From IMG/VR virus record IMGVR_UViG_3300014050_000012, positions 1 to 64,000 of that record: a DNA stretch of 64,000 nucleotides. One strand, given 5' to 3'. The notes under the pieces were generated by a model that saw only the letters and a program-made list of their open reading frames with translations, was not told where the DNA came from and made no database searches. Both the position numbers and the translations under genes were made by a program. Source of the DNA: a virus. The number at the start of each line of letters is the position of its first letter. Positions within the stretch are counted from its first letter, which is position 1. This document shows positions 38,601 through 64,000 of the stretch, piece by piece.

Positions 38601-41600
38601 TGGTACTATTACTGGTACAGTATCTTTTGATATATATAAAACTAGTGGCGTTTCCTCTTCTGATCCTTTGTTACCCCCAGTTAAACTAACAGGATCTTAT
38701 GATTGGAATCCAATATTTTCTGGTACCCATTCTGTTTATGAAACTACATTATCATTTAATTTTAAAGCAACTTCTCTACAGCTATCTAATAAAAATTGGT
38801 CTGATTTAGATAATCAAAAGATTAGTTTGAGTATTGTTAAAAATAATAGTGCCAATTGGACCACTTATGGATTATCAAATAATATTACGGCATATATCCA
38901 TCCACACCTAGGCTTATTAGAATTTGATCTTAATGCTACTTTACCATTATCTGGACCCAATATTTATTTGTATACATCGGAGCCTGTTTATCCAGATTTT
39001 TATGGACAGCCCGTATATTTTTATCCAGGTTACTACATAAATGATACCACAGCATCTATAAATATAGAACCATACTCTTATATAAATTATATATATGATA
39101 ACTTTAAATATATAGATTCTAATACTTTGGGCTTTGAACAGAAACAACTATGTTACACAACCGGTACGGATATGATTCTTATCTCTTATCCTTCGATTCT
39201 AAAACATAGAACCAATCTGATAGCAGACGAAAATGAGCCTTTATTTCTACAAATTGGCGACAGTATTAAAATAAATAATACAAACGATACTATTACTAAT
39301 ATTTATATAGATAATAGTGGTCAAAAACATTATTCTGTATCTAATTCTTATAGCGCTAATACAGGATATGTTTATTTAACAAGTTCTATTTCTGGAGTAG
39401 GTTTTTCTAGTCAAAGATCTTTTAATAGCATAACAGGATCTTATACTTTTTCTAGATCATCTAATAGTGATTACTCTAGTACTCTAGAAGGCCAGACTTT
39501 TGCACCATTAATAAGTTTGCCTATTCCTGGATGTGTTATTAATGAACCACCATTTTATAGTCCAAACTGTTTATATTCTGTACCAACAGGATATAATTTT
39601 ACTTTTACATTTAATAGTGGATTATATCCAAATGGTCAAGATTATTTATCTAGTAATGTATGGTCTTCTTTTAGTTCAAATGCTCTAATAGTATCTTCTT
39701 CGATAATTCTTTCTTCTGGGCAAAATTATGTAGATTTACCACCACTTTTAGTTCCAAATGGATTTTTAAACAGTACCGGAGTTAATGTTGCTAAATACTC
39801 ATCATCTATTTTTGATTTTAGACTAAATAATTTAAGAATGTCAGACTCCACATATAAGATTAGATATAGTGGGTATGATCCAAATAATAATACAGGAATA
39901 AATAGTACATTTAATGGCTTACCGGCAATATTAATTAGTGGAGACTATAATAGATTTTATTTTGATACTGCTAGTACCGGGAATGAAATTTTTGCATATA
40001 AATTTTTAACTATTTTAGATAGCAATAATCAACACTATATTTCCAATACCTTTAGATCTCAAATTAATAATACTAATCCAACTATAGACAATTATGGAAA
40101 TAAATTAATAAGATGTTCTGATTGGGGATTATTATCAGACTCAAGATGGACGGGTGAAGTAGAGTGTAATAACTTTAATCTTGACTTTAGTGTTTCGTTG
40201 CCTCTTGATCTTAATAATAACTTTATAGAAAATTTTACACAAAATACCAGTACAACAGGAACATTTATTATAGCCTCTGGAACTGGACTAATTTTACCAG
40301 CAGATACTGGCACTTGGACAGCTTATGGTTTATCTGGTATAAATAATATATATGGAGATATTGTTTTATATCTAAAATGTAGAGAAAATTATAATTATAC
40401 AAATTTTAGTGGCGTTTTATCAACAGGTCAATTAGCCCAGCAATCAATATATAATCGTGGATTTACAGTAACTGAAATTTATCCAGAAATAGACTGTAAT
40501 ATTTATTCTGCTAATGGTACAAATACTGGAATATTTTCTATCTCTCTAAGTAATAAGCAAAATTATCATACACTAACAGTAAATTATCCTGACACATATC
40601 TAGATTATTTTAGACTACTACAATCATCGAATACTATAGATATACATAATAATCTAAACTTATCTTTTGCGTTATTAAATGGATCAAATACCACTATAGT
40701 TTCTGGTATATTTTTACCAAATACACAATGCAATAAACATATCATAAACAAACCTTTTAGTAAAATTTATAATGTTAACTCGAATACTTTTAATATTGCT
40801 GTTGTTAGCGGCTATATACCATCTGGATTACCAAGTTCAGGACCAATTATATTAACTATTCCAAAAATTTATGATTTGGTTCCATCAGATCAGATGCCTA
40901 GCTATCACACAGAATCTAGGGGAGTATTTGACTTTTCTTCCAGCAATGCAATCTTATCTAATGGTATTTATACCATAGAAAAACTAGATGATTATAATAT
41001 ATATTTATATGATTTCCCCAGATCTTTCGTCACAGGAGCTGATAGCGGAGAAAGTACTATTAGATATAATAATATAGGATTTAATATTACAGATGATAAG
41101 TTTAGTTTGTGGGGTAAAAATTTTGCTGGCGACACTATATTACATCCGTGGAGAGATGTGCCAACATTTGTTTCGGATTCTCCTGGCATTTGCGAATCTG
41201 GGAAATTATGTATTAGATTTTCTGGTATTCCAAATTATTTTCAAGAAAAAGATAATTTTTGGGTAGATATTATTCCAGATATTTATCCTCAATCTACAGG
41301 ACTAGTATATGCTACGGGATATTATGTAACTGGATTAAGCGGAATTAATGATAGTACTGTTTATATAAGATGTACTGGAGCATCTTCTTTAGGCGTTGTA
41401 CTGGGCATGAATATTTATTCAACAAATAATTGGACACCAAATAACTCTTACATATCCAGCTTAGTTAGTGGACAAGTTATAAAACTTAATACAAATATTA
41501 CCAGCGCATCGCCCGGAATATATACTAATATACACTCTAATTCATTCGCATATCCGTATCTATTTGCTTTTAATAAAGAAACCTCCTCACAAAATGCTGA

Positions 41601-44600
41601 GACAGATATTCTAAGAGAAGCTTGGAGAACTTTCATTTCTGGAGCATATTCTATACATAGAGATGAGGTTGCGCCAACAGTTGTTAGTATTTTAACTAAA
41701 ATTCCACCATTTTACTATAATGCTAATCATCCATATTATTCTGCATGGAATAGTTCTCAGGCCACTAGAGGAGTAAATGTTTGGAAAAATACTGGGTCTA
41801 CTGGTATATCGATGATGATTACGGGTGTTGAAAATATTCAAACCGATAAAAATCCTAACTATGGCTATAGATTTGTAAATACATCGCCATCCATATCATT
41901 CCAACCATCTATCACAGGATACGGCACATCTGGCAACATAGCAAATACTGGAAATAATAGTAAATTTAGATTTGCTCTAGATGAACTTAATAAATATTTA
42001 TGTGTTACTAGTATAAGTGGCATACATAGACCAACACTATCTTCTGGGCTTTTGGGTGCAAATGTTAATTTCCTTTCTGCATCAGATTGGACTATGAATA
42101 GTTCAAAAACAGAAAATACTAATTTATTAGTAAAAGATATAGATAATTTTACACTATTAGGCATAGATACTATTTCATTAAATAATACCCATAACGTAAT
42201 TTACAATTCTGGAAATAATATTTTTATAGCATCAGGATTACCACAAAATAGTGGATTAAAATTTAGATTTGGTTTGTGTGGCGGAGCATCAATACCATCA
42301 TTACCACCGGAAATTCAAGTTTTTGGTATTAATTCAAACTTTAACTATACAACAAAACATGTTTATGGTCTACCAACCGGAGATCAAGGATTATCTTCAT
42401 ATAGCAATCTCATTACTCCTTATAGTAATGTTTGGTATATTGATTTATATGTTAATGAGCTTAATAATATTCCTTCTTTTTCTTATAGTTTTAAAGATAT
42501 ACTTTACAATAAAGTAACCGGTATTATTTATAACAATAACCAAGCTGCGAATCATTATTATATTAATAATTTTACCACAACAACATATTCTAATGGAACT
42601 TTACCGTGGGTAGCTTCGTTTGATTTAGAAAATGTCAGTAGTGGTACTAACATAGGCATTAGTGGTGGTAGTGGAAACAATGTATTAATTCTAAGTAGTG
42701 GATTGGTATATAATCCTTATATTAGTAAGTGGCAAGGCTATATTTTTGGAAGTGGTACAGGTATAAATACCACATACAGCAATTTACCGGTTGGTATTAC
42801 TGGCGCTATAAATCTAGTACATACTGGTAATTTATTAGTAACAGGAGTGAATGCTGCGTATTCTCCAAGAATTAGTAATCTTTTAGATACAATTAAATTT
42901 AGAAATACAGGATTAGATCCCATAGTGCTCTACTTTAATTACCAAAAAGCTATTGGAGAAATAGATAGTCCATCTATTCAATTAAGTAATTATCCATCTG
43001 GCGCCACTATTAGCACAAATAAAATATCAGATATTAATTTAAATGCTTTTGCTCAAGCAACGAACAAGGAATTATGGAAAATAACTATAGGTAATATTGG
43101 AGCCACAGGATATACTCTTAATGGAGTGGCTTCGTTGTCTCCATATATAGATAATTTTAGTAGTAAAATTATTTCTTATGATTTATTTGGTATAAGTAAT
43201 GTATTATCTCCTGATCCTATTAATTTAACTAATACTAATTGGTTAATACAGTTAAGCGTTGATGGTGGAGGAGGACCAAATTATCCACCAAATATACAAC
43301 TGTTCAACACCCCTTCTGTGTATCAAACCGGAACATTAGCTTATGACTATACTAATAGTCAATGGGATATATCTTTAATAGGTAAGATTGATGATTTACA
43401 AAGATATAATATCGCTACAGGATTATACAATATTCAAATATATGGCCGAGATACTACAGGATATGCAACCAGCAGTACTAGCTTCACTTATTTATGCAAT
43501 CCAGAAATTCTAAATTTGAGAAAATGGTATGCTGTTAAAGATAAATCATATTTAATAAATTATGAAGTAAATAATTGTTGTAGAAATGAATACAATGTAA
43601 ATTCTAATACTTTTATAACTGATCCAAATTTACCAACATCAGAAACTCTACTATATAAAAAATATAATCCACTAATTAATACTTATGAATTGAGATATTT
43701 AGGAGATGCACCAGTAGATAAATGGGGAGCTAGATTAGAAATTTCTAATATTGATACAGAATATGCTTATGATGCTGTTAATGCTAATACTTTTACCATA
43801 GATGTAAAGGGATTAGACTCTGATGTGATTAGTGTTGTTGGACTATTAAAACTTAAAGAACTAGAAACGATTAATTCTGATTATCCGCCAATAGATATTA
43901 TTAATGTTAATCCAGAAGAGGATAAAACAAAAGCATTAACACAAGGAGATAACTGGTCTTTAAGCTTTAATGTTGTTGGTGGTTTATCTAATATTAATTT
44001 TCCTCCTACAATATTATTAAGCGGCTTACCATCTGTATGTAGTGGATATTTTCCTGATATTGAACCTAATGGTCCGCCATGTTTATCATCATTCTCTTTT
44101 AATAATAGTACATTACGTTGGACATTTAATTTTGCTGGACAAAGCAATTGTACAACTGGATTATATAATATTAGCATTAAAGCTTTTGACTCCACAGGAG
44201 AAGACACAGCATATACCAATCTATTCTTTGAACCATTACCGATACCTGGACCATCAGTTGTTTCTAAACTAACATCAAATTCTTTATTTCCTAACTGTTT
44301 GCCATTTTCTGGAGATATTCATGTTATTTCTCCAAGAAGAGGTTCTCCATGCCCATATATAACTGGTATTAAAGGATGGGAATTAATAGGTTCATTACCA
44401 AACGGTCTAGCTTTAGTATCAAACGAACTAGCTGGACTAAGTGCTCCTCATTACGTTGGTACTGGTATAGTTTCGATTACAGGAACAGCAACACAATTTG
44501 CTCCAGATAATGTTTATCCTGCGTTTATAATTAGAGCAACAGGATTTAATGATAAAACAGCTCAAACTGTTATTACTCTTAATAGTGCTGGAATAGTTCC

Positions 44601-46794
44601 TATCGATGAATATCCTCTTGGCTTTACTTTATATTTTCCACATTCTGGATATATGCTACCAACCTATAAACCGAATCCCAATGACACTCCACGAATAAGA
44701 TCAGCGAATCAAAGTGTTTATAAACCATATCCTGGTACTGGAGCGATGATTTGTCGTAGTTCATTATCTGATAATAATTGTCCAATATATTATACTGGAA
44801 TATATACTTTGCCAACATTTTCTATTACAGGATACGAAATAGCATCAATAAATAATCAAACAAACTTTTATGTGACAGGATCATATGGTTATATACCAGG
44901 ATATCTAAGTGTATGGAAAAATAATACGCTGTTAACTAACAATACAGATTTTACTGCTACTGGAAGTCCATTAATAACTTTGTCTGTTTCTGTTAATCAA
45001 AATGATGAAATTAGATGGAGTGGATTAGCATCTACCGGAACTGGATTAATTATAGATTTTGGCACAGAATCCATTTCTAGTTCGAATGTATACAGTGTAT
45101 TTGATTTTAATTTAACTAATAATAAGAATAATATTTATCAATTAATTAATATTAGTAATGAAGAATTTTTTGATGAAAAAACGCAACAATTCTACTATAA
45201 GTATGGTGGAGAATTATCTAATGTTTGCGATTCTAATCTACTCTTTTCTGGATTATCTCCAATATCTGGACATATACAACTTATGCCATTTGGCGTAGAG
45301 TCTATGAATATGCCAAACAGTTTTAATCTTAAAGGCGTTCCTGCATCAACTATGAACTGTAAAACATGCTTATTGGGTAATGGTGAGTTCGACACGTCTG
45401 GACCTAATCCTATACTTATTGGTAAAATGAGACCATCTATGATGTTAAATATTACAGGAAATATATATCCATTACAAGAATACGATTCAACAAATACTTG
45501 TATATCCAATAATTATTATATGGGTGGCGGCGTACAAAATCTGACCCTAATAAGCGGCGTATCTATAAGCTTACTACCAGGATTTTCTAGTGGAGAAATA
45601 GAGGAAATTTGCTATAAAAATTGTTATGAAAGTGGTGTTTCGTATCTTAGTGGCATAGTGGTACCAACTCCAGTAATAGAAATTACTGACCCGATACCTT
45701 ATGTTCGTAATTCACAAAATGTAGCATATGCCCTAAGATGTTCTTTTGGCGACACTAGTGTAAAAAGAGATAATATACAAAACTATAGAGGGGTAGATAT
45801 CAAATATTATATTAAACATTTAAATAGTGGATTATACTGGAATAATTCAGAAAATAAATTTGTATCTACAAAAACATTTTTTACACAATCTACAACAACG
45901 AATCTATCATTACCACAATCCATACCTTACTCAGCGCCAATTTTAACTAGTGGAGCGACATATGAACTATTTATGGAAAGAGCATCAGATGAATTTCCAA
46001 CTGTAAATATTAATTCTTATCCGTATATGAGTAATGCTATTTATTGGATACATCAGGCAAATGACGGAAATTCCTATCCTGCAACATCATCAACATATCC
46101 TGGATTTATGCCTATTCGATATAATAGTGGTATATTTATTGAGACCGGAGTTCCATTTAGAATACCTGCTCAAATTATAGGTGGTAGTGGATCGTATCAA
46201 CCAACAATAACCGGTTATTTAAGTCTTATTGATAGTAATACGGAAGTCTTGGATATTAATGGATTATCTCATAATCTAGCTGTTAGTACTAGTGGATCTA
46301 TTGTTAATGATGGATTATGGAATATTCAAATTACTGGTAATATTACTGGATTATTAAATTCTTATTTATCAAATTATGACTTACATATAGATATTACAGA
46401 AAATATTTTAGCTCCATTTGGTAAAACTACTAATAATATTATTCCAGTAACCATGCTTAGTCCTTTGTCATTTGCTATAACTAGCGATGGAGGATCCACC
46501 GTTTCTGCGACAATCGGATCAGTATGGAGCATATCTTTTACTGTTACAGGTGGAAATAGGCCACCAAGATATCATACTAATACTACTCAATGGGCAATTG
46601 ATAATGAGCCTATAGTAGAAATTGATGGCGAAATTTGTAATCATATATTTACTAAGTCTTATAATATGTCTAATAATACTTGGTCATATACTGTAACTTC
46701 TGCAAATATAGTTTTGGGCAATGAAATCCATACGATAAAATATATTGATAAAATGGGATATAGTATTTCTCAAGTTATTAACATACAAGTGTAA
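35668..46794 (+). CDS. giant (3708 aa) fibre/adhesin-like virion protein
   Basis: collagen-like GDKGDKGDKG, two DLLDGQH motifs, KV.VNSKGR fibre repeats, repeated Ig-like W.L.F.V.GG....PP.I units. Confidence 0.7.
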   Translation: MTIVNILEDSNNPNKYLIISSQDGTSESIVTTNVFVTSTSNNRLDLIEITKIPGDKGDKGDKGDIGPPGQDGLVFTVLPVSSGGTSNTSFITDKVIYYDGTQLVSSDLDINSIQTDIISNINAGNGLSKVQNGDEVTLNTNLGNGLTIVGDNQIGVDTNVVITKSTFDLSNTSFYQGILPIAYGGTNNTFFGLNSLIYYDGSKLATYPIPTGGIVHSGQQINIIAGSGLVGGGDITLPNGSVVIKLQNSDDITVFDDRIELSEIITTGTFTKVNVNSKGRVIGGSNITLNDVVTALGGMPWTSSTDGSGSGMDADLLDGQHGSFYRDAANISGTISTGVLPNIVSPATASKVQFNAKGLIIGTDFLTDTEITDALGYVPFDESGGTIFSNVEILGNLIADSATFDNNTITIGSPTNTNDIRGIRFRYNDVPAKHAVLAYYPAEGLFRISAESPGTSGIILTQEKADSKYVAVTGEQQISGIKTFLDNLNVYSRIIIRNPYPELSPLDIGSNSTLVQFLNADLLDGQHISYYRNAVNLTGILNTGVIIPHIQNRATVTYSNINNPDDGFVEYFPVFHRPSSGHPMVLRSSNVYHTGYNIHMKDSSLSVGFNILDDNISNSLVVGTNNSGSALATNSLAVGSQNIISGENSIALNYRSSAGTSNSIALGRYGETWLDDQISIGGFKNFNVGQDNIPRKDSHGQLSYIPLKYHGEAGGYVNILSFTLPENKTLEYEASLLFTKQINTGVASFNISPGIVKNYGYRDPSRGYAAYKKATMVTHHNVTEVYNNSQERIYNLAVELDNSYDANFKANDLEVTAKPYQYNTLDIQSYGTPIVITPKSDHSSKLKVTRGSSDLEDTYRDNYVIKIEPYNRSPYNTGAPITLGRNINHITECLYYRPSGSTTGIIKFSNHGFSPSCPFEISQYIGTGNIKILARKDSVFDFGLPTIQKTGTTINSFYKENNSNNEIIYRTYIDKNIFGTITGTVSFDIYKTSGVSSSDPLLPPVKLTGSYDWNPIFSGTHSVYETTLSFNFKATSLQLSNKNWSDLDNQKISLSIVKNNSANWTTYGLSNNITAYIHPHLGLLEFDLNATLPLSGPNIYLYTSEPVYPDFYGQPVYFYPGYYINDTTASINIEPYSYINYIYDNFKYIDSNTLGFEQKQLCYTTGTDMILISYPSILKHRTNLIADENEPLFLQIGDSIKINNTNDTITNIYIDNSGQKHYSVSNSYSANTGYVYLTSSISGVGFSSQRSFNSITGSYTFSRSSNSDYSSTLEGQTFAPLISLPIPGCVINEPPFYSPNCLYSVPTGYNFTFTFNSGLYPNGQDYLSSNVWSSFSSNALIVSSSIILSSGQNYVDLPPLLVPNGFLNSTGVNVAKYSSSIFDFRLNNLRMSDSTYKIRYSGYDPNNNTGINSTFNGLPAILISGDYNRFYFDTASTGNEIFAYKFLTILDSNNQHYISNTFRSQINNTNPTIDNYGNKLIRCSDWGLLSDSRWTGEVECNNFNLDFSVSLPLDLNNNFIENFTQNTSTTGTFIIASGTGLILPADTGTWTAYGLSGINNIYGDIVLYLKCRENYNYTNFSGVLSTGQLAQQSIYNRGFTVTEIYPEIDCNIYSANGTNTGIFSISLSNKQNYHTLTVNYPDTYLDYFRLLQSSNTIDIHNNLNLSFALLNGSNTTIVSGIFLPNTQCNKHIINKPFSKIYNVNSNTFNIAVVSGYIPSGLPSSGPIILTIPKIYDLVPSDQMPSYHTESRGVFDFSSSNAILSNGIYTIEKLDDYNIYLYDFPRSFVTGADSGESTIRYNNIGFNITDDKFSLWGKNFAGDTILHPWRDVPTFVSDSPGICESGKLCIRFSGIPNYFQEKDNFWVDIIPDIYPQSTGLVYATGYYVTGLSGINDSTVYIRCTGASSLGVVLGMNIYSTNNWTPNNSYISSLVSGQVIKLNTNITSASPGIYTNIHSNSFAYPYLFAFNKETSSQNAETDILREAWRTFISGAYSIHRDEVAPTVVSILTKIPPFYYNANHPYYSAWNSSQATRGVNVWKNTGSTGISMMITGVENIQTDKNPNYGYRFVNTSPSISFQPSITGYGTSGNIANTGNNSKFRFALDELNKYLCVTSISGIHRPTLSSGLLGANVNFLSASDWTMNSSKTENTNLLVKDIDNFTLLGIDTISLNNTHNVIYNSGNNIFIASGLPQNSGLKFRFGLCGGASIPSLPPEIQVFGINSNFNYTTKHVYGLPTGDQGLSSYSNLITPYSNVWYIDLYVNELNNIPSFSYSFKDILYNKVTGIIYNNNQAANHYYINNFTTTTYSNGTLPWVASFDLENVSSGTNIGISGGSGNNVLILSSGLVYNPYISKWQGYIFGSGTGINTTYSNLPVGITGAINLVHTGNLLVTGVNAAYSPRISNLLDTIKFRNTGLDPIVLYFNYQKAIGEIDSPSIQLSNYPSGATISTNKISDINLNAFAQATNKELWKITIGNIGATGYTLNGVASLSPYIDNFSSKIISYDLFGISNVLSPDPINLTNTNWLIQLSVDGGGGPNYPPNIQLFNTPSVYQTGTLAYDYTNSQWDISLIGKIDDLQRYNIATGLYNIQIYGRDTTGYATSSTSFTYLCNPEILNLRKWYAVKDKSYLINYEVNNCCRNEYNVNSNTFITDPNLPTSETLLYKKYNPLINTYELRYLGDAPVDKWGARLEISNIDTEYAYDAVNANTFTIDVKGLDSDVISVVGLLKLKELETINSDYPPIDIINVNPEEDKTKALTQGDNWSLSFNVVGGLSNINFPPTILLSGLPSVCSGYFPDIEPNGPPCLSSFSFNNSTLRWTFNFAGQSNCTTGLYNISIKAFDSTGEDTAYTNLFFEPLPIPGPSVVSKLTSNSLFPNCLPFSGDIHVISPRRGSPCPYITGIKGWELIGSLPNGLALVSNELAGLSAPHYVGTGIVSITGTATQFAPDNVYPAFIIRATGFNDKTAQTVITLNSAGIVPIDEYPLGFTLYFPHSGYMLPTYKPNPNDTPRIRSANQSVYKPYPGTGAMICRSSLSDNNCPIYYTGIYTLPTFSITGYEIASINNQTNFYVTGSYGYIPGYLSVWKNNTLLTNNTDFTATGSPLITLSVSVNQNDEIRWSGLASTGTGLIIDFGTESISSSNVYSVFDFNLTNNKNNIYQLINISNEEFFDEKTQQFYYKYGGELSNVCDSNLLFSGLSPISGHIQLMPFGVESMNMPNSFNLKGVPASTMNCKTCLLGNGEFDTSGPNPILIGKMRPSMMLNITGNIYPLQEYDSTNTCISNNYYMGGGVQNLTLISGVSISLLPGFSSGEIEEICYKNCYESGVSYLSGIVVPTPVIEITDPIPYVRNSQNVAYALRCSFGDTSVKRDNIQNYRGVDIKYYIKHLNSGLYWNNSENKFVSTKTFFTQSTTTNLSLPQSIPYSAPILTSGATYELFMERASDEFPTVNINSYPYMSNAIYWIHQANDGNSYPATSSTYPGFMPIRYNSGIFIETGVPFRIPAQIIGGSGSYQPTITGYLSLIDSNTEVLDINGLSHNLAVSTSGSIVNDGLWNIQITGNITGLLNSYLSNYDLHIDITENILAPFGKTTNNIIPVTMLSPLSFAITSDGGSTVSATIGSVWSISFTVTGGNRPPRYHTNTTQWAIDNEPIVEIDGEICNHIFTKSYNMSNNTWSYTVTSANIVLGNEIHTIKYIDKMGYSISQVINIQV

Positions 46795-54503: not shown

Positions 54504-57500
54504 ATGGCAGCATTTAATCTAACAGCACAATTAAATCTTGTTGGACCAACAAATATTAGGCAAATTGTTGGAGATATTAGAAAACAATTAGGAACCATTA
54601 AGGGAACTATTAATGTTGGTATTGATCCACAATCAGCTAAGGCTATAGCACAAGCACAATCTCAAGCTGCTCAATTAAGTTCCGGACTAAATAACGTAGC
54701 AAAATCTGGAAATACTGCCGCAGCTGGCATGAGAGATTTAAATGACGCTGCTGCAAAAAATCAGTTAGGATCTACAGCTAAAAATGCTGCATCGGCCGCT
54801 GATGCTGCTACAAATCTTGGTAAACAAAGTTCCAGAGCTGCTAAAGATGTTAAGGTGCTAGGTAATGAGTTAGCTGAGTTCGGTAGGCAGTCTGGTTTAG
54901 CTATTAGACGTTTTGCTGCTTTTAGTTTGGTATCAGGAGTTATGTATAAACTTAATAGTGCTATTAATCAAGCATTATCTCAATATATAGATTTTGATAG
55001 AGAATTAGTAAGAGTTTCACAAGTTACGGGAAAAAGTGTTCAAGAATTAGGTAGTTTGGTAGATGAAATATCTTCGTTGGCAGGCAGTACTGGCGTAGCA
55101 TCTAAAGAATTAATACAAGTATCATCAACCTTAGCACAAGCTGGTTTGAGTGCCAGAGAAGCAGAACAGGCCCTAAAAGCTTTGGCGCTTAGTGCTAATG
55201 CGCCGTCTTTTGATAATCTTAATGATACTGTAGAAGGTAGTATCGCTTTAATGAGACAGTTTGGTATTAGGGCAAATGAACTAGAATCAGCACTAGGTAG
55301 CATTAATGCTGTGGCCGCAGCATTTGCTGTTGAAGCTAGTGACTTAATTACCGCAATTAGTAGAACTGGTGGTGTGTTTGCTAGTGCTAGTAGAGGAGTT
55401 AGTGAAGGAACGCAAGCACTAAATGAATTTATTGCTGTATTCACAAGTGTTCGTGCTACAACTCGTGAAAGTGCCGAAACTATTGCTACTGGTTTAAGAA
55501 CTATTTTTACTCGTATTCAGAGAGAGTCCACAATTACTGCTCTAAGAGAGCTGGGTGTGGAACTTAGAGATGTGGAAGGAAAGTTCGTTGGTCCGTATGA
55601 GGCCGTTAGAAGACTAAGCGAAGGATTGGGACAACTAGATCCTAGATCTCAAGTATTTGCTAATATCATAGAAGAACTTGGTGGTTTTCGCCAAATTGGT
55701 AAGGTTATTCCGCTTATTCAACAATTCGCTACAGCAGAAGCGGCTTTGCAAGTAGCGCTCAAGGGTGGAGATTCACTAGCAGAAGCTAATAGACAAGCCC
55801 AACAATCTTTAGCTGTACAACTAGCTAAAACTAGAGAAGAGTTTGTGGCATTAGTAAGAGATTTTGCTAATAATTCTGTATTTAGAGGATTTTTAACAAC
55901 TACAATTAGTATAACAAAAAGCATATTAAGTTTAGCAAGAGCGGGAAAATCATTATTTCCCTTACTAACTATACTTGGTGGATTTAAAGCATTCTCTGCT
56001 GCTACTCAGTTTGCTGGTGGATTTTTAAAGGGTGTGCGACCAACAGGAGGAAGACCTGGTGGTTCTGCTAGTAGGGGTATAGGACAAAATCTTGGTGAGG
56101 TAATTAGTGGTTCCAAAAGCGAAAGACAATCAGCATCGTTAGACAAGATAGCTAAAGTTTTAGAAAGTAATGCTGGAAATTTTAATACCAGTGTATCATC
56201 TTTAATTCAACCTATCACACAACTATCTACAGCTATACAACAAAATATAGTTAGTCTTACAGATAATACTGGAGCTTTGACAGCAAATACAGCTGCTATT
56301 AATAATTTAACTGCTGCATTGGGTATGAAGGGAACAACATTAGCTGGTGGTGGCAAGGTTTTAGGCTTCGCCAAGGGAGGAACTGTTCCTGGCAGCGGAA
56401 AAGGAGACAAAGTTCCAGCATTATTAGAGCCTGGCGAAGTTGTAATGAGCAATAGAGCTGTTAATAAGTATGGAAGAGGTAATTTGGTTAATATGAATAA
56501 AAGATATTTTAAAGGAGGTATAGCCCAAGAAAAGCTTCAAACACTAGTTGAAAAAAGCAATAGTATTAAAAAATATATTAATGACACTATCAATCCAGAT
56601 GATGAAGCATTAACAAAGATAGTTCCATTTCGTGTTGATCTTGATGATAATGATTTCAGAGAAATGAAACAAATCATGATAGATACTGAAAGGCAAAGAC
56701 TTAGATATTTAGAAACATATCGTGATGATCCCAAAGCAAATAAACAAGTGCAACAGAGAGCCAGAAGCAGCAAAGACCCTAGAACAGTTGTTGGATTTCT
56801 TGGTCTGAAAAAACCAGAATCTCATTGGGGTCCAGGTAATGCTTTTCAACAGCATTTAATTAAAAGACTAAATATTTCACCAAGCGATATGCCCCCTAAT
56901 CTTGGCACACCACAAGAACAATTTAAAGATATTATAGACGAACATTATGCTGTTTTAGACTACCAAGACGGTGATGCTAAATTTTGGAAAGATCTAAGTT
57001 ATTTTGATACACAACCCGGAAAAATAGACATACTAAATAAACAATTTAAAAATGTAGTCAATAATAATCAACTAAAACCAAAACCAACCCCAAATTATGA
57101 ACTTTTTACTTTACCGGATACGCGAGTTTATTATCCTGAGATTGGCACAAAAGAACAATTTATGCGAGATTATGCGGCGTTTACCACAGCAGATTATGCA
57201 AAAACACATCTTCCAGCAGGAGCTTATTCTATTGGTGGAAAAATTCAAAAATTTGCTGGTGGAGGAGAAGCACTACAATCTAAATTATCAACCATAAGAA
57301 CTCTTTTAGGCGAATTTTATGGAAACGATGAACAACTGATATCAAAATCAATTTCTAATTCTATGATAATCGATGAGGCTCGTGCTGATAAAATTATTGC
57401 TAATTTAGAATCATCTAGATCACAGTTACCATTATTTAGAAAATTATTATCAGAAAAATCGTCTTCTGTTGGTGTTTTAAATGGATTTCCAATAGCCAGG

Positions 57501-60500
57501 TATGGTGCTATTGGTGGTATTGAGACTATGAGATTTGATGAACTAAAAGATGAAGAAACCATTAGAGAGTTTATAAAAAGAGGAAAATTAGCAACACAAG
57601 CTTCGCGTGGTCCAGTTGGTAAACGCATAGTTTACAGTGATCAAAAAGCAGCAAGACGAAGGTTTGCGGTTGGCGGAACAGTAGAGGGCATAGCTGCTAA
57701 AGAAAAAAAATCTATTGAAACTGTAATTTTAGAACAATTATCCAGTTTTGGAGATGCTAGCGGAGTTAAAAAAATACTAGGATTAGGAGCTGGAGAAAGA
57801 GAGATTAGCTCTATATTGAATGCTAGTAATATTAGAGCCGGTAAAAACATAGAAAAAGCTATTAAATTTATAAATAGGGCGCTAGCTAAGACAGGAAAAC
57901 AAGATGCTGCTAGAGAAGCAAAAGAAGCAGCCATGAGAAAAGTTGCAATTGCCGGATTATTTCCATTAGATTATAATAAAGATTTTTCAGACTGGAAGTT
58001 GGAAGATGGTAGAGAAATTTATGGTTATGTTAGAGGATTTCAATCTAGCTTTTTACCACAAATAGAAGCTATGCAAGAGGCTAATAGAGCTACTCGTCAA
58101 AAATTTGCTGAAGATATTCAAGATACGGCAGCATTAGGCGGATTAGGTAATAGAAATATTCAGGGGCCAATTCAACCATTAGCAATAGATTTTGATGAAA
58201 CATTGGCTCTTGGAACAAAAATGTTAAAAGTTAACAAAGAGGGTAAAGAAGAAGAAGATTTACCAGCCTATGCGGATAGAAAAAAAGTTATGGAAAGTCT
58301 AGCCCAAGCTAGACCAACCTCACTAGCTAAAAGATTGGCTAGTATAGAACAAAAAAATCCCGGATATGTTAGGATGTATAGTCGTATCTTAACGGCCCGT
58401 CCTCAAAGCACAGCAGATATTATAGCATCTACTCTTAATAGATTCGGATTACCGTATTTAGAACAAGATGTTACTGGAGTTAGTCAAGGATTAGGAACAA
58501 ATATAGCAAAAGCTAAAGCTGCTAATGTTGCAGCAGCGGAAAAATTGATCGATGATAGTGAAGAAAATATTAGAGCAACAATGGCTGCTGGTAAAAGCAC
58601 TTTTCGTTATGGCGAAGTTCCAGAACTCAAAGGACCAGCAGAAGAAAAATTTGGACAATCTAATATTGAAGGAGGCTTGTTAGAAGCGGCACTATCGCAA
58701 TTATTGGGTTATAATATAAATGTTGATGCTTTAGAAAGAAATAGGGCGATTGATTTTCCACAAGGACTAGGTAGAGGTGCTCAACTTTTTGGATTACCTC
58801 CGAATATTGAAACAGAAGTAAAAAGAACTTTGGACGGAGATAGTTTTTCAAAAGCCAGAGAAGAATTTAGTAGATACTTTACAGAAAATCCACAAGCCTA
58901 TGCTAAAGGAGGAGCAGCAACATTTGGCTCTGGATCATTTAAATTTCCCAAAAGAATAAGTAATGCTTATGTTCGGGAAATGGAAAAATTATTAGAACAA
59001 GAACAAATGGAGAAGGTTTTTTCAACGTATCCTGGTAATGAAAGAATGATTGTAGACGAAGAGGCTGTGAAAAAAGGTTACGAATCTCCTTTTAGTAGAG
59101 AACTATTCATAAATTCGTTTAAGGATAAAATAAATAGAAATACAGTTTTTGAAAGAATGGGGCAATTTGCGCGAGTTATAGGATTGCCACCCGCCGATCT
59201 TTTATCTGCAATACCAACTCAATTAGACTTTGGTGTTAATTATCCTGCTACAGCATTATTTAGCAAGGATCCTTCTGGCCCAGGAACCAGGGGACTACAA
59301 GGGGTGGATCTGACACCATATGGTTATACTGAACAAGATAAACAAGATTTATTCGGATATACTAAACTAATAGAAGAAAAAAAGAAACAAATATTAAAAA
59401 CAATTAAAACTCCTGTTACAACATATGAAGATGGTAGTTTTGGTTATGATGTGGCTCTAACAGAAAAATTAAGAGCAGAATTAGACGATTTACAAAAACA
59501 ACAAAGATCTCTTATTGATAAAAACAATGCGGCTATTAAAGCTGCAAAAGAATCCAGATTACAATCCGCAAATCAGAGTGGTCGAGGTAGCGTTGGTATA
59601 GCTACTAATCCGTTCAATACAAGTCAACGTCAAGACTATAGTATTTTATATCATGAATTAACTCATCAACTTTTTAATAGTCTTAGAACTAAAAATGCTC
59701 AATCATTTGAAGCATACAAGGCAAAAGTTTCTAGTTTATTCGATGGAAACAATGATGATGTGGCAGATGCTTTTGATACTCTGGTAGGAAATAGTGGATA
59801 TAATAGTGCTGATGTTGCTTATGGAAGAAGTTATAAACTTAATGGACTAAGTAGTTTAATGATAGGCTCCGCTAAAAAAGAGTCGTTTGAAAAATATGTT
59901 AATAGTGATCCAGAATATGTTCCAGAATTAAGAAAAACTTGGGCCGAAACAAATTCCACCACAAAGGCCAAAGCCTTTAAGCCACTTAATCCTAGAGTTA
60001 ATGATGTTTTATTAAGAGGTAAAATAAGTCAAGATGTTATAGATAAATATGAAGATAATGGTAAAGAAGAATTTTTAACCACACTAGTACAAAAATTACC
60101 ATTATTAGATGAAAATTTAAGTGGAATTTTGGATAGTACTCTGGATGAGTTGTTGGGAGGTGCTGAAATAAGTAGACAAAAATTTGCTATAGGTGGTAAA
60201 GTTAATTTATATCATGGTTCGACAACAGGAATAGATGATAATCAATTAAAGAAATTTAAAGAACAAGGAGCTTTATCTAATATAGCTCAAGGATATGGTC
60301 AGGGTGCTGGATTTTATGTCTGGACTGATAAATTAACCGCTATTAAACATGCGGATATGAGGATCAAAGCAGCAAAAGAAGGTATAAATAGTATTATGGG
60401 AGGAGATACTGGTGGAAAAGGAATGATCTTAGAATTCCAAGAATCTTTGGATCCATCCTTATGGGATCTTGATTATGAAATATCTAAAGGGCCAGTTATC

Positions 60501-63500
60501 AAATGGATAGCCGATAATTATGAAACTTTAAAAGATAAAGTTGCCGCATCTGAAGGAATAGCCGGCGTTACCGAAGTCGAAAAATATGATCCTAAAGTTG
60601 CCAAAGAAACTGGATTATTATATGGCGGCGCTAATATTATGACACAAACAGCTACTGGATCCAAAAAATATATAGATGCAGATTCAGCTGGAGATATACG
60701 AGAGGGCGAAATTCTTGGACAAATTATGAATAGGCTTCAGTCTAATGATCCTAGTCTTGTTCACTCATTTGAAAATAGTTTTTTCGGTCAACAATCTTTT
60801 CCAAAAGGATCGGCTCTAAAATATGTTGGATCGTCGCCATTAATACCAGTAAATATTGAAACATTCGCTTCTGGTGGTAAGGCTGGACTAGCAGATGTTA
60901 ATAAAGTTGGAGAACAACTATCTAGTGATTTTAAATTAATGAAAGGAAAAAATGCATGGAATCAATTAGAAAATAATTGTTTAAGTATTGCTAATAAGGT
61001 ATCCGATATGTTTGGCTATGTTGTAGAACCAGATAAAATTAGACAACAACTTGATACTTTCCAAAAATTAAGACTTGGTAAAACTAGCGCATTTGGATTA
61101 AAGCCGACAGAAGAAGTATTAAAGAAAATGCCATCATTGAATAGAATGCTTAATAATCCAACTTTAGCTGCTAGTACTGGTAATATAGTAGTTAGAGAAG
61201 GCGAAGAAATGATGAAACATGTATCATTTGAACATATGAATAAGGAATATAATTTTGGAGCAGCTGGTCCTGACTGGCCCATAGTGTTAAGAATACCTTT
61301 AAAAAAGAAAGATGCTGAGCAAAAACGCTATGGAGGTATGCTTAATAAATTCACTTCGGGAGGAACCATACCAGCACTAGTAAGTAACGGTGAGGCTTAT
61401 GTGCCTCCGAAGCTTGCTAAACGCATTGGATATGGAACACTAAGTCGTATGAATATGGCCGATAAAAATGGCATGGGGAGATTTAGTGATGGTGGAATTA
61501 GTGTATTTAAGGGTCCAGGTAGTGGAACTAGTGATAGTATACCAACAAGTTTACCAGTAGGAAGTTTTATAATAAGAGAAAAGGCTACTAAAGCTTTGGG
61601 ATTAAATAAGGGTGGGAGCGTAGGCATTCAAAAATTTCAAGACGGAGGCGCCCCAACAAATAGCGGAGACCTATATTTTACCACCTTGTCATCTGCTCAA
61701 ATACAAGATATAGTTGGTAAAGGATCATCTAGAACAGGAATAGATGTTGAATCTTTAGATTTATTAACAAGATATGCTACAGATGCAGGCATGAGCATAG
61801 AAGATTTTTCTAGCGGACTAATAAGAGCTAGAGATACTGCAATTGAATCTGCTTTAGCACAAGGACAAAGTTTTAAAGAAGCAGCATTAGCTGGACAACA
61901 AGCTGCTATTGCGATGGCAGATATTCCAAATATACAAGTTACAGGAGAAAATCCGTTAGACGTACTAAGATCCTTAACAGCATCGTCCACTAGAGTACAA
62001 GCAAATGTCGAACAACGTAGAGAAATATTAAGTGATCCTGAAATTATTGCTGCTATTAATGAAACTAATGATTTAATGAGTAAACTAACTCCTGCTGAAC
62101 AATTTTCTGTTCAAACAGGAACCGGACCAATGACCCCACAAATGGAAGAAGCAGCAGCATCTAGAAGAAGACAAAAAAATATTGTTGGATATAAAATAGA
62201 AGAAAGACAAACTCAAGCCAATCAACCAGGATTTGTACCACCAACTATACAACAACCAACTAATTTAATGGATATTGATGGTATTAATAATCAATTGAAG
62301 GAAGCTCAAAATAATGCTGCATTATATGCGTCATCTCTTAGGGATCAAGCTAATGCTATTCGCGCACAACAAGAAATTACCATAGATCCTGGCACCTTTG
62401 CTGGATTAGAAGCTAAAGCACAAGCTCTAGAAGAAAAAGCAGCAGCAACCGAAAAAGCTTATCAAGATTTGGCAGATAGTACACAAGAGAGTGTGTCTTG
62501 GTTTGATACAGAATATCAGGCGGCTATAGATAGTATGAGAATACGAGCAGAGTCTGTAGCTAAAGCAACACAAGATGTTGAAAAAGCTATGGTAACAAGA
62601 GCTAAAGAAATAGCCTCTGCAAATCCAGAATTAACAGCTGAAGAAATTGGACAACAGATTAGCACAGAAAAAACAGGAATAGTAGCAGAAGCTAGGGCTC
62701 AACAAACAGAAGCCGAAACAAAATTTGGTAGAGCACAAAGTAGGGTTGATACACTAGCGGGCAAAGCTGGTGCTGGAGCAGATATTTTAGCGGCTGATAA
62801 TAAAGCTAAGGCAGAAGCACAAGCTAAAGCAGATGCTGAAAAAGCCTTAGAGGCTCGTAAACAACAAGCGCGTGACCTTGGGGCGAAACGTGCGGCTATT
62901 GCTGTACCAGAAAAAAGAGAGTACGAAACAGAACAAGAATTTAACGATAGACGACAAAAGGCAACAGAAAGATTTACCAGACAATCAGCACGAGAATTGG
63001 GTCTTAGTAAAACTAGATTTGTTAGCTCAAGACAAAAAAAAGCTATAGAAGAAGAAGAAGCTAAAAAAACTAAAGTTGAGAGAGAAAAAACAGATGTTGC
63101 TATTCAAAGCACAGATACTAAAGCTACACTATTATTAGTACAAGCTATTAATGCAAATACTGTAGCACAAACTGGTTCGGCAGATTCTGTGAAATCATTA
63201 ACCGAACAAACAAATGGTCTCATTGCTACAAATGAACAACTAACTAATGCAAAAAATGCTGATATTGAACAGGCTAATGCTTCTCCTGAGAGAAGCGACC
63301 TATCTAAAGACACCCTAAGAGAAATTCCATTCTTAGACAAACTTGAAACATTAGGATCAGCAGTTGGTGACTTTGCTAATAATTTTGCAGCATCTACTAC
63401 TGATATTGATGGCAATATTGGTAAATTTGGTAGTGTTCTTCAGGGCGGTGCTTCTAGATTAGAATCTGGTATCAAAAAACTAGCTGATGGTATCAGAAAT

Positions 63501-64000
63501 GCTAATACGGCATTTGCAGATACTAAAATAGGAAAGTTTGCGGATTCATTTAGTCAATATGGCACAGCAATAGGTACTGGTGTAACAAGCGTACTACAAT
63601 ATATGGCCGACCAATCTAATGGTTATGAAACACTAACAGGATCAATACTACAAGCAGGATCAACAATAGCTAGTACAGCAACCATATTCGGTACTTTTGG
63701 TGCTCAATTCGGTCCGCTTGGTGGATTATTGGGAACACTTGCTGGCGTAGGGGCTGGAGCAGTACAAAGCATAAGAGATTATGTAGAAGCTCAGAATAAG
63801 GCCGCGGCAGAATTGTTAGAGACACAACGAACAGATGCTTTAGAAAAAGCATCATCAGATATTGCTGTATTTTTAGATAATGTCAATCCGTCTGCGAAAG
63901 ATCTTGAAAGCGCTCTTAGTAATTTGGCTCAGGTAGTAAATATTGAAAAAGAACAAATGTCTACTAATACAGAAGCTAGCAGATATAAATCAACTTATGG
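54504..64000 (+). CDS. tape-measure protein (TP901-type core) with embedded multi-enzyme region; 3'-truncated, at least 3165 codons
   Basis: manual translation from ATG 54504 (MAAFNLTAQLNL...); core FDRELVRVSQVTG...LAQAGLSA...ETIATGLRTIFTRI; no stop found in the parts translated, and its absence from the ORF track is consistent with it running off the window. Confidence 0.88.
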   Translation, partial: MAAFNLTAQLNLVGPTNIRQIVGDIRKQLGTIKGTINVGIDPQSAKAIAQAQSQAAQLSSGLNNVAKSGNTAAAGMRDLNDAAAKNQLGSTAKNAASAADAATNLGKQSSRAAKDVKVLGNELAEFGRQSGLAIRRFAAFSLVSGVMYKLNSAINQALSQYIDFDRELVRVSQVTGKSVQELGSLVDEISSLAGSTGVASKELIQVSSTLAQAGLSAREAEQALKALALSANAPSFDNLNDTVEGSIALMRQFGIRANELESALGSINAVAAAFAVEASDLITAISRTGGVFASASRGVSEGTQALNEFIAVFTSVRATTRESAETIATGLRTIFTRIQRESTITALRELGVELRDVEGKFVGPYEAVRRLSEGLGQLDPRSQVFANIIEELGGFRQIGKVIPLIQQFATAEAALQVALKGGDSLAEANRQAQQSLAVQLAKTREEFVALVRDFANNSVFRGFLTTTISITKSILSLARAGKSLFPLLTILGGFKAFSAATQFAGGFLKGVRPTGGRPGGSASRGIGQNLGEVISGSKSERQSASLDKIAKVLESNAGNFNTSVSSLIQPITQLSTAIQQNIVSLTDNTGALTANTAAINNLTAALGMKGTTLAGGGKVLGFAKGGTVPGSGKGDKVPALLEPGEVVMSNRAVNKYGRGNLVNMNKRYFKGGIAQEKLQTLVEKSNSIKKYINDTINPDDEALTKIVPFRVDLDDNDFREMKQIMIDTERQRLRYLETYRDDPKANKQVQQRARSSKDPRTVVGFLGLKKPESHWGPGNAFQQHLIKRLNISPSDMPPNLGTPQEQFKDIIDEHYAVLDYQDGDAKFWKDLSYFDTQPGKIDILNKQFKNVVNNNQLKPKPTPNYELFTLPDTRVYYPEIGTKEQFMRDYAAFTTADYAKTHLPAGAYSIGGKIQKFAGGGEALQSKLSTIRTLLGEFYGNDEQLISKSISNSMIIDEARADKIIANLESSRSQLPLFRKLLSEKSSSVGVLNGFPIARYGAIGGIETMRFDELKDEETIREFIKRGKLATQASRGPVGKRIVYSDQKAARRRFAVGGTVEGIAAKEKKSIETVILEQLSSFGDASGVKKILGLGAGEREISSILNASNIRAGKNIEKAIKFINRALAKTGKQDAAREAKEAAMRKVAIAGLFPLDYNKDFSDWKLEDGREIYGYVRGFQSSFLPQIEAMQEANRATRQKFAEDIQDTAALGGLGNRNIQGPIQPLAIDFDETLALGTKMLKVNKEGKEEEDLPAYADRKKVMESLAQARPTSLAKRLASIEQKNPGYVRMYSRILTARPQSTADIIASTLNRFGLPYLEQDVTGVSQGLGTNIAKAKAANVAAAEKLIDDSEENIRATMAAGKSTFRYGEVPELKGPAEEKFGQSNIEGGLLEAALSQLLGYNINVDALERNRAIDFPQGLGRGAQLFGLPPNIETEVKRTLDGDSFSKAREEFSRYFTENPQAYAKGGAATFGSGSFKFPKRISNAYVREMEKLLEQEQMEKVFSTYPGNERMIVDEEAVKKGYESPFSRELFINSFKDKINRNTVFERMGQFARVIGLPPADLLSAIPTQLDFGVNYPATALFSKDPSGPGTRGLQGVDLTPYGYTEQDKQDLFGYTKLIEEKKKQILKTIKTPVTTYEDGSFGYDVALTEKLRAELDDLQKQQRSLIDKNNAAIKAAKESRLQSANQSGRGSVGIATNPFNTSQRQDYSILYHELTHQLFNSLRTKNAQSFEAYKAKVSSLFDGNNDDVADAFDTLVGNSGYNSADVAYGRSYKLNGLSSLMIGSAKKESFEKYVNSDPEYVPELRKTWAETNSTTKAKAFKPLNPRVNDVLLRGKISQDVIDKYEDNGKEEFLTTLVQKLPLLDENLSGILDSTLDELLGGAEISRQKFAIGGKVNLYHGSTTGIDDNQLKKFKEQGALSNIAQGYGQGAGFYVWTDKLTAIKHADMRIKAAKEGINSIMGGDTGGKGMILEFQESLDPSLWDLDYEISKGPVIKWIADNYETLKDKVAASEGIAGVTEVEKYDPKVAKETGLLYGGANIMTQTATGSKKYIDADSAGDIREGEILGQIMNRLQSNDPSLVHSFENSFFGQQSFPKGSALKYVGSSPLIPVNIETFASGGKAGLADVNKVGEQLSSDFKLMKGKNAWNQLENNCLSIANKVSDMFGYVVEPDKIRQQLDTFQKLRLGKTSAFGLKPTEEVLKKMPSLNRMLNNPTLAASTGNIVVREGEEMMKHVSFEHMNKEYNFGAAGPDWPIVLRIPLKKKDAEQKRYGGMLNKFTSGGTIPALVSNGEAYVPPKLAKRIGYGTLSRMNMADKNGMGRFSDGGISVFKGPGSGTSDSIPTSLPVGSFIIREKATKALGLNKGGSVGIQKFQDGGAPTNSGDLYFTTLSSAQIQDIVGKGSSRTGIDVESLDLLTRYATDAGMSIEDFSSGLIRARDTAIESALAQGQSFKEAALAGQQAAIAMADIPNIQVTGENPLDVLRSLTASSTRVQANVEQRREILSDPEIIAAINETNDLMSKLTPAEQFSVQTGTGPMTPQMEEAAASRRRQKNIVGYKIEERQTQANQPGFVPPTIQQPTNLMDIDGINNQLKEAQNNAALYASSLRDQANAIRAQQEITIDPGTFAGLEAKAQALEEKAAATEKAYQDLADSTQESVSWFDTEYQAAIDSMRIRAESVAKATQDVEKAMVTRAKEIASANPELTAEEIGQQISTEKTGIVAEARAQQTEAETKFGRAQSRVDTLAGKAGAGADILAADNKAKAEAQAKADAEKALEARKQQARDLGAKRAAIAVPEKREYETEQEFNDRRQKATERFTRQSARELGLSKTRFVSSRQKKAIEEEEAKKTKVEREKTDVAIQSTDTKATLLLVQAINANTVAQTGSADSVKSLTEQTNGLIATNEQLTNAKNADIEQANASPERSDLSKDTLREIPFLDKLETLGSAVGDFANNFAASTTDIDGNIGKFGSVLQGGASRLESGIKKLADGIRNANTAFADTKIGKFADSFSQYGTAIGTGVTSVLQYMADQSNGYETLTGSILQAGSTIASTATIFGTFGAQFGPLGGLLGTLAGVGAGAVQSIRDYVEAQNKAAAELLETQRTDALEKASSDIAVFLDNVNPSAKDLESALSNLAQVVNIEKEQMSTNTEASRYKSTY

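Follow-up and report, generated by a model that had tools for sequence, protein, structure and literature searches.

We analyzed a 64,000-nucleotide stretch of viral DNA, positions 1 to 64,000 of IMG/VR record IMGVR_UViG_3300014050_000012 (the window), and focused on one giant gene for a tape measure protein (TMP) that carries an array of enzyme-like cassettes. The source is an uncultured freshwater phage, and the gene encodes a single TMP of the TP901 family. Its reading frame starts at 54504 on the plus strand, has no stop up to the end of the window, and ends at 68624 in the 88,908-bp contig. It is a single open reading frame (ORF) of 14.1 kb without stops, with a product of 4,706 amino acids (aa). 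About 1,650 aa of independent cassettes are set between two copies of a conserved TMP unit and are separated by short [FYL]xxGG motifs, at which they are exchanged between related phages.

The assignment to the TMPs, made in an original prediction from the letters of the window, was borne out by profile searches. The protein matches PF10145 with an E value of 6.2e-24 (85 bits against the Pfam cut-off of 33) and the tape-measure PHROGs 1533 and 28. It has the features typical of TMPs, i.e., a long helical A/E/Q/K-rich body, Gly-rich hydrophobic stretches and a ..PAxLxxGExV.. unit. Downstream of 61650 an A/E/Q/K/L/R-rich, aromatic-poor composition returns, in line with the predicted resumption of an Ala/Glu/Gln-rich TMP past this point. 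The nearest cultured TMP core is that of SPbeta YomI, which is annotated as a transglycosylase and is 23% identical. A tblastn search with the entire array against cultured phages gave zero matches, and in Pfam and PHROGs scans of the whole protein and of each segment the TMP core alone was matched.

The gene is laid out as follows. For the joints between cassettes, the model confidence (predicted local distance difference test, pLDDT) is given where available.

54504..64000, on to 68624 in the contig, + strand: TMP ORF (PF10145, phrog_1533, phrog_28)
55065..55685, + strand: PhageMin_Tail (TP901-type) core domain, aa 188-394 (PF10145)
56340..56519, + strand: T0, first conserved TMP unit at the array start, aa 613-672 (LAGGG and FAKGG, then DKVPALLEPGEVV, then YFKGG)
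56520..57224, + strand: cassette S1, aa 673-907; rare, 4 relatives
57225..57266, + strand: joint doublet YSIGGKIQKFAGGG, with motifs YSIGG at 57225 and FAGGG at 57252
57267..57662, + strand: cassette S2, aa 922-1053; rare, 2 relatives
57663..57677, + strand: joint FAVGG; pLDDT <50
57678..58148, + strand: S3a, aa 1059-1215; helices, a three-stranded sheet and a long helix in the model
58149..58622, + strand: S3b, HAD phosphatase domain by motifs and predicted fold, aa 1216-1373
58623..58898, + strand: S3c, aa 1374-1465, with NIEG..E, AIDFP and an invariant TEVKRT
58899..58913, + strand: joint YAKGG; pLDDT <50 at model residues 411-419
58914..60182, + strand: cassette S4, aa 1471-1893; N-terminal sub-domain and zincin-like half
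60183..60197, + strand: joint FAIGG; pLDDT <50; high-identity blocks end here
60198..60863, + strand: cassette S5, aa 1899-2120; predicted ADP-ribosyltransferase fold, H-Y-E type
60864..60878, + strand: joint FASGG; pLDDT <50 at model residues 229-243
60879..61349, + strand: cassette S6, aa 2126-2282; very rare
61350..61649, + strand: T unit at the array end, aa 2283-2382; contains four GG motifs in two conserved TMP repeats
61650..64000, + strand: A/E/Q/K-rich TMP body following the array, by composition

Six modules had been predicted between the GG motifs. The modules are indeed discrete, but at least eight evolutionary units can be distinguished, since S3 splits into S3a, the HAD domain and S3c, and S4 has two sub-domains. 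The placement of modules at GG boundaries holds for the cassettes, whereas aa 622-672 and aa 2283-2382 are not cargo but copies of the TMP unit.

This unit is widespread. T0 was found in 101 of 119 relatives, and the T unit retains 70-96% identity among relatives with cores of only about 50% identity. Its consensus is [FY]AxGG, then ..VPAxLxxGExV..A..IGYGxL..MN.., then again [FY]AxGG; in a looser form, the core reads IGxGxL. Weak T-unit matches were obtained inside annotated TMPs of 171 cultured phages, and the core peptide was matched in at least 598 IMG/VR stretches. The TMP of phage lambda, gpH (L057), contains exactly one T unit (aa 733-782), which starts with FATGG(733), continues with a GE.V..A..IG.G.L core and closes with YATGG(778). 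Alignment of the T unit with gpH by hhalign was weak (E 0.004, probability 8%), and it is chiefly the motif pattern visible in the sequence that supports the match. The joint is therefore an ancient TMP element that was multiplied in this family and not one invented for cargo.

The array also occurs outside the window. A locus of another metagenome (L055) is near-identical to it and fully identical across S5, S6 and the T unit. All array junctions are bridged, with 0-7 differences, by contigs of three other runs, which come from other studies and years (2013-2019). Freshwater runs of 2011-2019 held at least 0.84 of the array's sampled words. A metatranscriptome run holding contigs was rejected as evidence of expression, as transcription is not implied. 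The cassettes are selected, functional proteins under purifying selection: the ratio of nonsynonymous to synonymous substitution rates (dN/dS) for S3 and S4 was 0.05-0.29 when the window was compared with relatives having 93-95% identical DNA, and catalytic-type residues are invariant despite 35-55% identity in fragment alignments of S3, S4 and S5.

Exchange of cassettes at the GG joints

The 13 GG motifs on which the original prediction was built are all present in the one frame from 54504, each at the nucleotide position predicted for it (aa 613, 622, 668, 908, 917, 1054, 1466, 1894, 2121, 2283, 2327, 2367 and 2378). Within aa 613-2385, [FYL]xxGG occurs 14 times, against 2.56 copies expected from 5,000 shuffles (maximum 10); the 14th copy is LLYGG at aa 2038, within S5. 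In the rest of the TMP, the motif is absent from the 612-aa core and occurs once in the 2,321 aa past the array. Enrichment was likewise absent in the contig's other giant ORFs. The joints are often doublets of the form GGx[VI]x[KG]FAxGGxV, and the cassettes each end in a [KR][FY]AxGG joint. All four modelled joints (FAVGG, YAKGG, FAIGG and FASGG) have pLDDT values below 50 and lie between confident domains; as modelled, they form unstructured seams.

Copies of the motif use different codons, which indicates selection at the peptide level and not at the DNA level. A role of the joint as a DNA-level recombination site was rejected on the same ground. The residue following GG is not conserved as Ser, Thr or Cys, and autoproteolysis via an N-O acyl shift was rejected for that reason.

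A search with the array brought up 126 proteins, which measure about 1,900-5,500 aa and cover 3-57% of it; PF10145 is present in nearly all of them. When the full TMP was compared by BLAST with 119 relatives, cassettes were found to be present or absent independently of one another. Their order is shuffled as well: S4 precedes S3 in relative P0005, S6 precedes S5 in P0034, and in P0016 S5 is found about 2,500 aa downstream. Alignments end at a median distance of 7 aa from a motif, compared with 60 aa for random positions, and 73% of the ends lie within 15 aa of a motif (17% for random positions). Across the family the motif occurs 1,893 times, versus 579 times in shuffles. Cutting the proteins at the motif gave 864 segments of array size (median 216 aa) that form 316 clusters, with a median of 7 per protein, and all 120 proteins compared have distinct architectures. 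Judged from these sequence clusters, the family holds hundreds of cassette types. Public data contain more than 1,000 giant TMPs. In P0006, a Pfam-significant C3-like ADP-ribosyltransferase (PF03496) lies within one motif-bounded segment. The TMP of P0027 contains EF-hand calcium-binding Pfam domains, a further cassette type.

Shared blocks in the DNA of IMG/VR relatives end at the same places. The TMP cores of these relatives are about 52% identical at the protein level, yet they share DNA blocks that are 93-95% identical to the window. Such a block covers aa 910-1893 in L001 and L008, aa 614-1897 in L002, and aa 1054/1057-1897 in L003, L004, L005, L007 and L009, where it starts at FAVGG. The doublet at 57225 is the start of a 95% identical DNA block common to L001, L006 and L008. 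All shared-block ends fall at listed motifs. Past FAIGG, the block-sharing relatives continue either directly with the T unit or with about 217 other residues. In L011, about 416 different residues replace S5 and S6, while the rest of the backbone is shared at 92-94% identity as far as the C-terminus, and in lake-water contigs homology breaks at 60196 and 61378, which are the edges of S5 plus S6. A comparison of related TMPs for gain, loss and swap of modules had been proposed as a check; cassette content turned out to be variable, with boundaries at the motifs. The block ends, the alignment ends and the lake contigs support the predicted picture of discrete, exchangeable cassettes that are gained, lost and swapped at GG motifs.

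Content of the cassettes

The sequence motifs that characterize the cassettes are located as follows.

58188-58205, + strand: DFDETL, HAD motif I
58386-58403, + strand: ILTARP, HAD motif II
58545-58562, + strand: LIDDSE, HAD motif IV
59649-59669, + strand: YHELTHQ in S4
59805-59837, + strand: SADVAYGRSYK in S4
60207-60221, + strand: LYHGS in S5
60291-60317, + strand: GYGQGAGFY in S5
60465-60479, + strand: DLDYE in S5
60969-60986, + strand: ENNCLS in S6, with the Cys
61212-61235, + strand: MKHVSFEH in S6, with the His

The two most N-terminal cassettes are rare. A 99% identical copy of S1, a putative PD-(D/E)xK-like module in the original prediction, was found in L002 only. An X9 contig skips from 56501 to 57230 with a short side of 26 letters, and S1 may have been replaced there rather than lost. 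S2 is lost in frame between FAGGG and FAVGG in one X9 lake contig.

For S3, the AlphaFold model of aa 1054-1898 has a mean pLDDT of 76.9, with values of 85-95 within the HAD domain. HAD motifs I, II and IV are conserved, in order, in full-length S3 relatives of 29-52% identity and take the forms DFDxTL, ILTARP and LIDDN across relatives. In structural comparisons, the domain matched AphA and HAD hydrolases (Foldseek probability 1.0, TM 0.44-0.47). The best match in the VIA wide structural search was the 3'-phosphatase of T4 Pnkp (Z 11.3, root-mean-square deviation (rmsd) 3.4 Å over 125 residues), and many phage PNKP phosphatase domains in BFVD matched as well. At fold level, the modelled structure thus confirms the predicted HAD module as a phosphatase, with the T4 Pnkp enzyme as its nearest structural match. 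The ESM Atlas returned only weak (0.83) viral HAD clusters for S3.

The last part of S3, S3c, is about 90 aa long and can be called PD-(D/E)xK-like at motif level only. Its conserved residues in relatives, which were fetched as homologous fragments with a degenerate PTEVKRT DNA pattern, are NIEG..E, ID[FY]P and TEVKRT. The model predicts a helix, two short strands and a helix, with block-mean pLDDT values of 49-68 that fall below 50 at model residues 350-362. S3c is near-universal in the giant-TMP family. It often occurs alone, without S3a and the HAD domain, and in L037 and L042 it precedes the HAD domain.

Cassette S4 had been predicted to be a zincin. At the motif level this holds: YHE[LM]THQ and SADxxYGRSYK are invariant in 16 sequences at 40-47% identity, and in the model the HExxH sequence lies in a predicted helix (659-677) that follows a strand (643-646). 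The downstream SADxxYG resembles the aspzincin third-ligand motif GTxDxxYG and may play the same ligand role. A match at the level of the fold was not obtained, however, as the lists of fold searches with the S3 plus S4 model were filled by HAD and helical-hairpin matches. Pfam gave only weak single-member matches, to M91, M57, SprT and M78. A profile of S4 searched against 1.84 billion representatives found 43 proteins. Almost all of these are giants (2.7-7.3 thousand aa), and they include no member of a known peptidase family. Homologues of about the length of S4 were found only as TMP fragments. When PDB sequences were searched with profiles of S3, S4 and S5, no meaningful match came up.

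Five of the S4-carrying relatives (P0130-P0134) are 6,201-7,279 aa long and, to our knowledge, exceed any TMP known from cultured phages. Within S4, an abundant relative seen in three runs has 213 bases at 59837-60051 replaced by 231 other letters, which is not at a GG motif.

In S5, the motifs [LI][YW]HG[ST], GYGQGxGFY and DLDYE (H11/G12, G37-Y45 and D97/Y98/E99) are invariant in 10 sequences. In the VIA wide search, about 45 of 50 rows were of the ADP-ribosyltransferase (ART) fold, including KptA (Z 8.0), PARP13 (7.1), the Rhs toxin TreX (6.6), pertussis toxin S1 (6.2), Arr, DarT and diphtheria toxin. The Z scores are individually middling and the pLDDT of the model is 55-86. Pfam gave no match above the gathering score for any of the 10 members; below threshold, PF13151 (DUF3990) matched 9 of 10 members (best E 0.017) and PF18760 (ART-PolyVal) 2 of 10. 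The fold search on the model and the intact H-Y-E triad bear out the predicted ART-like module and confirm S5, at fold level, as an H-Y-E ADP-ribosyltransferase. For a model of S5 plus S6 (60183-61373), the best Foldseek match in the PDB was chain B of the cyanophage A4 pre-ejectosome, with E 7e-4 and a poor TM-score and rmsd. An ART-like part may thus occur among the ejection proteins of another phage.

S6 was called a Cys peptidase in the original prediction and remains a putative one. Its relatives are three distinct sequences in giant TMPs, one short fragment and the near-identical locus L055. Cys2159 and His2239 are kept in the four known S6 sequences, and the model has a pLDDT of 30-60, too low to be used. 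Neither Pfam nor the ESM Atlas gave a match, near-length homologues were not found beyond one GOS fragment, and a metagenome pattern search for S6 returned the near-identical L055 only.

Upstream of the tail genes, a giant ORF (35668-46794, + strand, 3,708 aa) has four copies of the GG motif, which is no enrichment, and has neither an HExxH sequence nor a Pfam match at E <= 0.001. The ORF at 7719-10835 (+ strand) is a probable large terminase subunit with a sub-threshold N-terminal match to Terminase_6N, into which an intein carrying a LAGLIDADG homing endonuclease is inserted. Two proteins (17394-19130 and 19164-21560, + strand) start with Mtd_N, the N-terminus of the major tropism determinant, which is a known target of diversity-generating retroelements. 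A probable adhesin or fibre is encoded at 25069-28905 (+ strand); this protein of 1,278 aa combines four fibronectin type III repeats with an LCCL-like region and a domain of the F5/8 type C family. Downstream of the TMP gene (contig positions 68657-88908, L016), there are ORFs of 1,564, 656 and 2,234 aa, none of which has a Pfam match, and then a further ORF of at least 2,282 aa.

Possible roles: cargo of the ruler, cleavage or a virion-side function

We consider it fairly probable that the cassettes are cargo built into the ruler, which would be held in the tail lumen, expelled ahead of the DNA and active in the host. As a section of the TMP, the array would lie extended or partly unfolded in the lumen, and would leave with the TMP into the cell envelope and cytoplasm before the DNA enters. 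The cassettes would then refold and act at once. TMPs are known to be ejected, and the processed form of lambda gpH, gpH*, has been visualised directly as a trans-envelope channel (PMC12617516). In phage P23-45, a virion RNA polymerase fused to a 5,002-aa TMP transcribes pre-early genes in the host (PMC10770324). Healing of RNA or DNA ends, or a reaction on nucleotides, is a plausible task for the Pnkp-like phosphatase; the ART would modify a host target with NAD as its substrate, and the HExxH module might cut host proteins or the array itself. The cassettes could work while tethered to the TMP channel, as proposed for the P23-45 polymerase, or after being cut apart. The seams would let each cassette fold alone, and recombination could add, remove or reorder cassettes without damage to the folds. 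As recombinants joined at seams stay functional, the seams would ease the exchange of cassettes.

Several points weigh against this reading. The computation establishes the intact gene, its TMP identity, the motif, the exchange of cassettes at it, purifying selection and the HAD and ART folds, whereas packaging in the tail lumen, ejection and delivery, refolding, the targets and any cutting are inferred. A lumen of about 4 nm has no room for three or six copies of folded cassettes that each measure 150-420 aa, and these would have to be unfolded in the virion. If every residue sets tail length, gain or loss of cassettes would change the tail by hundreds of nanometres. Among the cassettes, identity at the fold level was obtained for the HAD and ART domains only, and S3c is below the size of a canonical nuclease core. 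The modules are nearly confined to giant TMPs and there is consequently no independent functional annotation for them. Finally, the sequence aromatic-Ala-x-Gly-Gly is more specific than a passive linker would require and points to a role in recognition.

The last point leads to an explanation that we regard as possible but rather unlikely, namely that the array is a self-processing polyprotein in which [FY]AxGG is a protease site that is cut during tail maturation or after ejection. Cutting could be due to S4 or S6 as a built-in peptidase, or to a protease of the phage or of its host. Apart from the specificity of the motif, the peptide-level selection and the low model confidence of the joints, which are probably exposed segments, fit such a role, and cleavage of tail proteins has precedents. 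T5 pb2 is cut after R1127, which separates the enzymatic domain (PMC10038345), and TP901-1 Tal is processed at a Gly-rich junction ahead of its catalytic domain (PMC11409707). In lambda, a fragment of about 14 kDa (gpHC) is removed from the Gly-rich C-terminal region of gpH to give gpH*, by a protease and at a site that are unknown (PMC12617516). The single T unit of gpH falls within this Gly-rich region, which makes its joint, by sequence, a candidate for the cleavage site. Polyvalent proteins have also been proposed to be separated by their own metallopeptidases (PMC5512222), and HExxH modules are present in 42 of 120 relatives, far above chance. However, the other 78 relatives lack an HExxH module and S6 has three distinct relatives, while the motif is found in all members. 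Since most relatives lack a candidate protease and the motif is universal, a built-in protease cannot be the general solution. The claim that S6 is a Cys peptidase serving a self-processing array is excluded in its general form, as an enzyme with only three distinct relatives cannot be the general processing enzyme. The residue after GG varies, which speaks against an autoproteolytic acyl shift, and in T5 the mapped cut lies behind an Arg and not behind GG. The T units, as structural parts of the TMP, are bordered by the same motif. Moreover, the P23-45 enzyme is proposed to act while still fused to its TMP.

A bolder version can be formulated, which we consider doubtful. The T unit would be a general processing or docking signal in the TMPs of long-tailed phages, and the site where gpH is cut, and giant TMPs of aquatic phages would have multiplied it into plug-in sites for hundreds of cargo enzymes of the tail lumen. 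These would pass through the tail in unfolded form and be cut free in the host in a MARTX-like manner, as parts of an injection system that evolves by exchange of cassettes.

We think it quite improbable that the array has a role on the virion side only, such as assembly, setting of tail length, binding of a chaperone or the tube, or penetration of the envelope, with the motif as a hinge or contact site. The age and conservation of the T unit and motif, also in lambda gpH and in TMPs of the 171 cultured phages, would agree with this, as would the near-universal S3c, which resembles a structural part in this respect. The known enzyme inserts in TMPs are mostly muralytic, with SPbeta YomI, a transglycosylase, and T5 pb2 as examples (PMC10038345). 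Pfam scans detected no muralytic family in the array, however, and the substrates of a Pnkp-like 3'-phosphatase and of an ART that uses NAD are found in the cytoplasm; neither enzyme is known to take part in assembly or in lysis of the wall. The cassette content also differs between phages whose backbone is 92-94% identical, which fits arms-race cargo better. An artefact, i.e., an assembly chimera, genes fused by error or non-functional filler, is extremely improbable: the contig is metagenomic and the adjacent genes are mostly unannotatable, but L055 and the junction-bridging contigs contradict a chimera, the frame stays free of stops over its full length, and the dN/dS values and invariant catalytic motifs contradict filler.

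If the cassettes are injected cargo, the tail lumen would be a route for protein injection with a large and fast-evolving payload. This payload would be a new source of early host-takeover and counter-defence enzymes, such as end-healing phosphatases, ARTs, peptidases and many unassigned folds, and would explain the TMPs of 3,000-7,000 aa in uncultured aquatic phages. It would also pose a physical puzzle, namely how the length of the tail is fixed if its ruler can vary by hundreds of residues, and how enzymes can travel through it unfolded and survive. The shared joint offers a concrete candidate for the unmapped cleavage site of lambda gpH, and the seam-bounded design suggests a natural scaffold for loading foreign proteins in phage tails.

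Comparison with known systems

The closest precedent is gp96 of P23-45 (also in P74-26, G20c and TSP4), likewise a giant TMP (5,002 aa) with an enzyme that acts in the cytoplasm at the start of infection (PMC10770324). A metallopeptidase and transmembrane domains have been noted in it as well (PMC10770324). It differs in having one N-terminal enzyme and a fixed architecture; no cassette array, repeated joint or shuffling has been described. No sequence similarity between the window TMP and P23-45 gp96 was seen.

In MARTX, Rhs and CdiA toxins, arrays of effector domains or exchangeable tips are swapped by recombination at conserved junction peptides, and MARTX effectors are released by a built-in cysteine protease. 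Such toxins are secreted by bacteria and bring translocation repeats of their own, whereas the route for the window protein would be the phage tail. No CPD-like domain was identified in the array. Phage T4 injects a virion-borne ART of the R-S-E type, Alt. T4 Pnkp and Alt are free proteins; by contrast, the HAD domain of the window has no adjoining kinase domain, and S5 is of the H-Y-E type.

Polyvalent proteins are similar in being giant multi-enzyme polypeptides with ART and zincin-like domains, in their mosaic make-up and in their proposed entry with the DNA (PMC5512222). The window ORF shows a combination of this type, with HAD, ART and HExxH modules in one ORF and mosaicism among 120 relatives. 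Polyvalent proteins differ in that they are packaged in the head or transferred by conjugation and are not TMPs, and no common joint motif has been described for them (PMC5512222). None of the window domains matched a polyvalent-associated Pfam family above threshold; there were the sub-threshold ART-PolyVal matches and one weak BFVD row.

Sle1-type effectors of actinobacterial contractile injection systems are also comparable, as they use a TMP-derived platform, packed in a tail-like tube, with a variable domain that can be swapped experimentally (PMC13277306). They have a single C-terminal functional domain, belong to a bacterial nanomachine and lack a repeated joint (PMC13277306). Lambda gpH and T5 pb2 undergo one cut each, which in pb2 parts an enzymatic domain from the ruler (PMC10038345), but have no cargo array, and lambda has one T unit.

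In the original prediction, the architecture was not known as a described system. P23-45 (PMC10770324) and the polyvalent proteins (PMC5512222) are partial precedents. Full-text literature searches found no description of ART or multi-enzyme arrays within TMPs, and the paper on polyvalent proteins never mentions tape measure proteins (PMC5512222). A single TMP-polymerase fusion, polyvalent proteins and muralytic TMP inserts are of a known kind; what is new here is a TMP-borne, seam-delimited and cassette-shuffled enzyme array.

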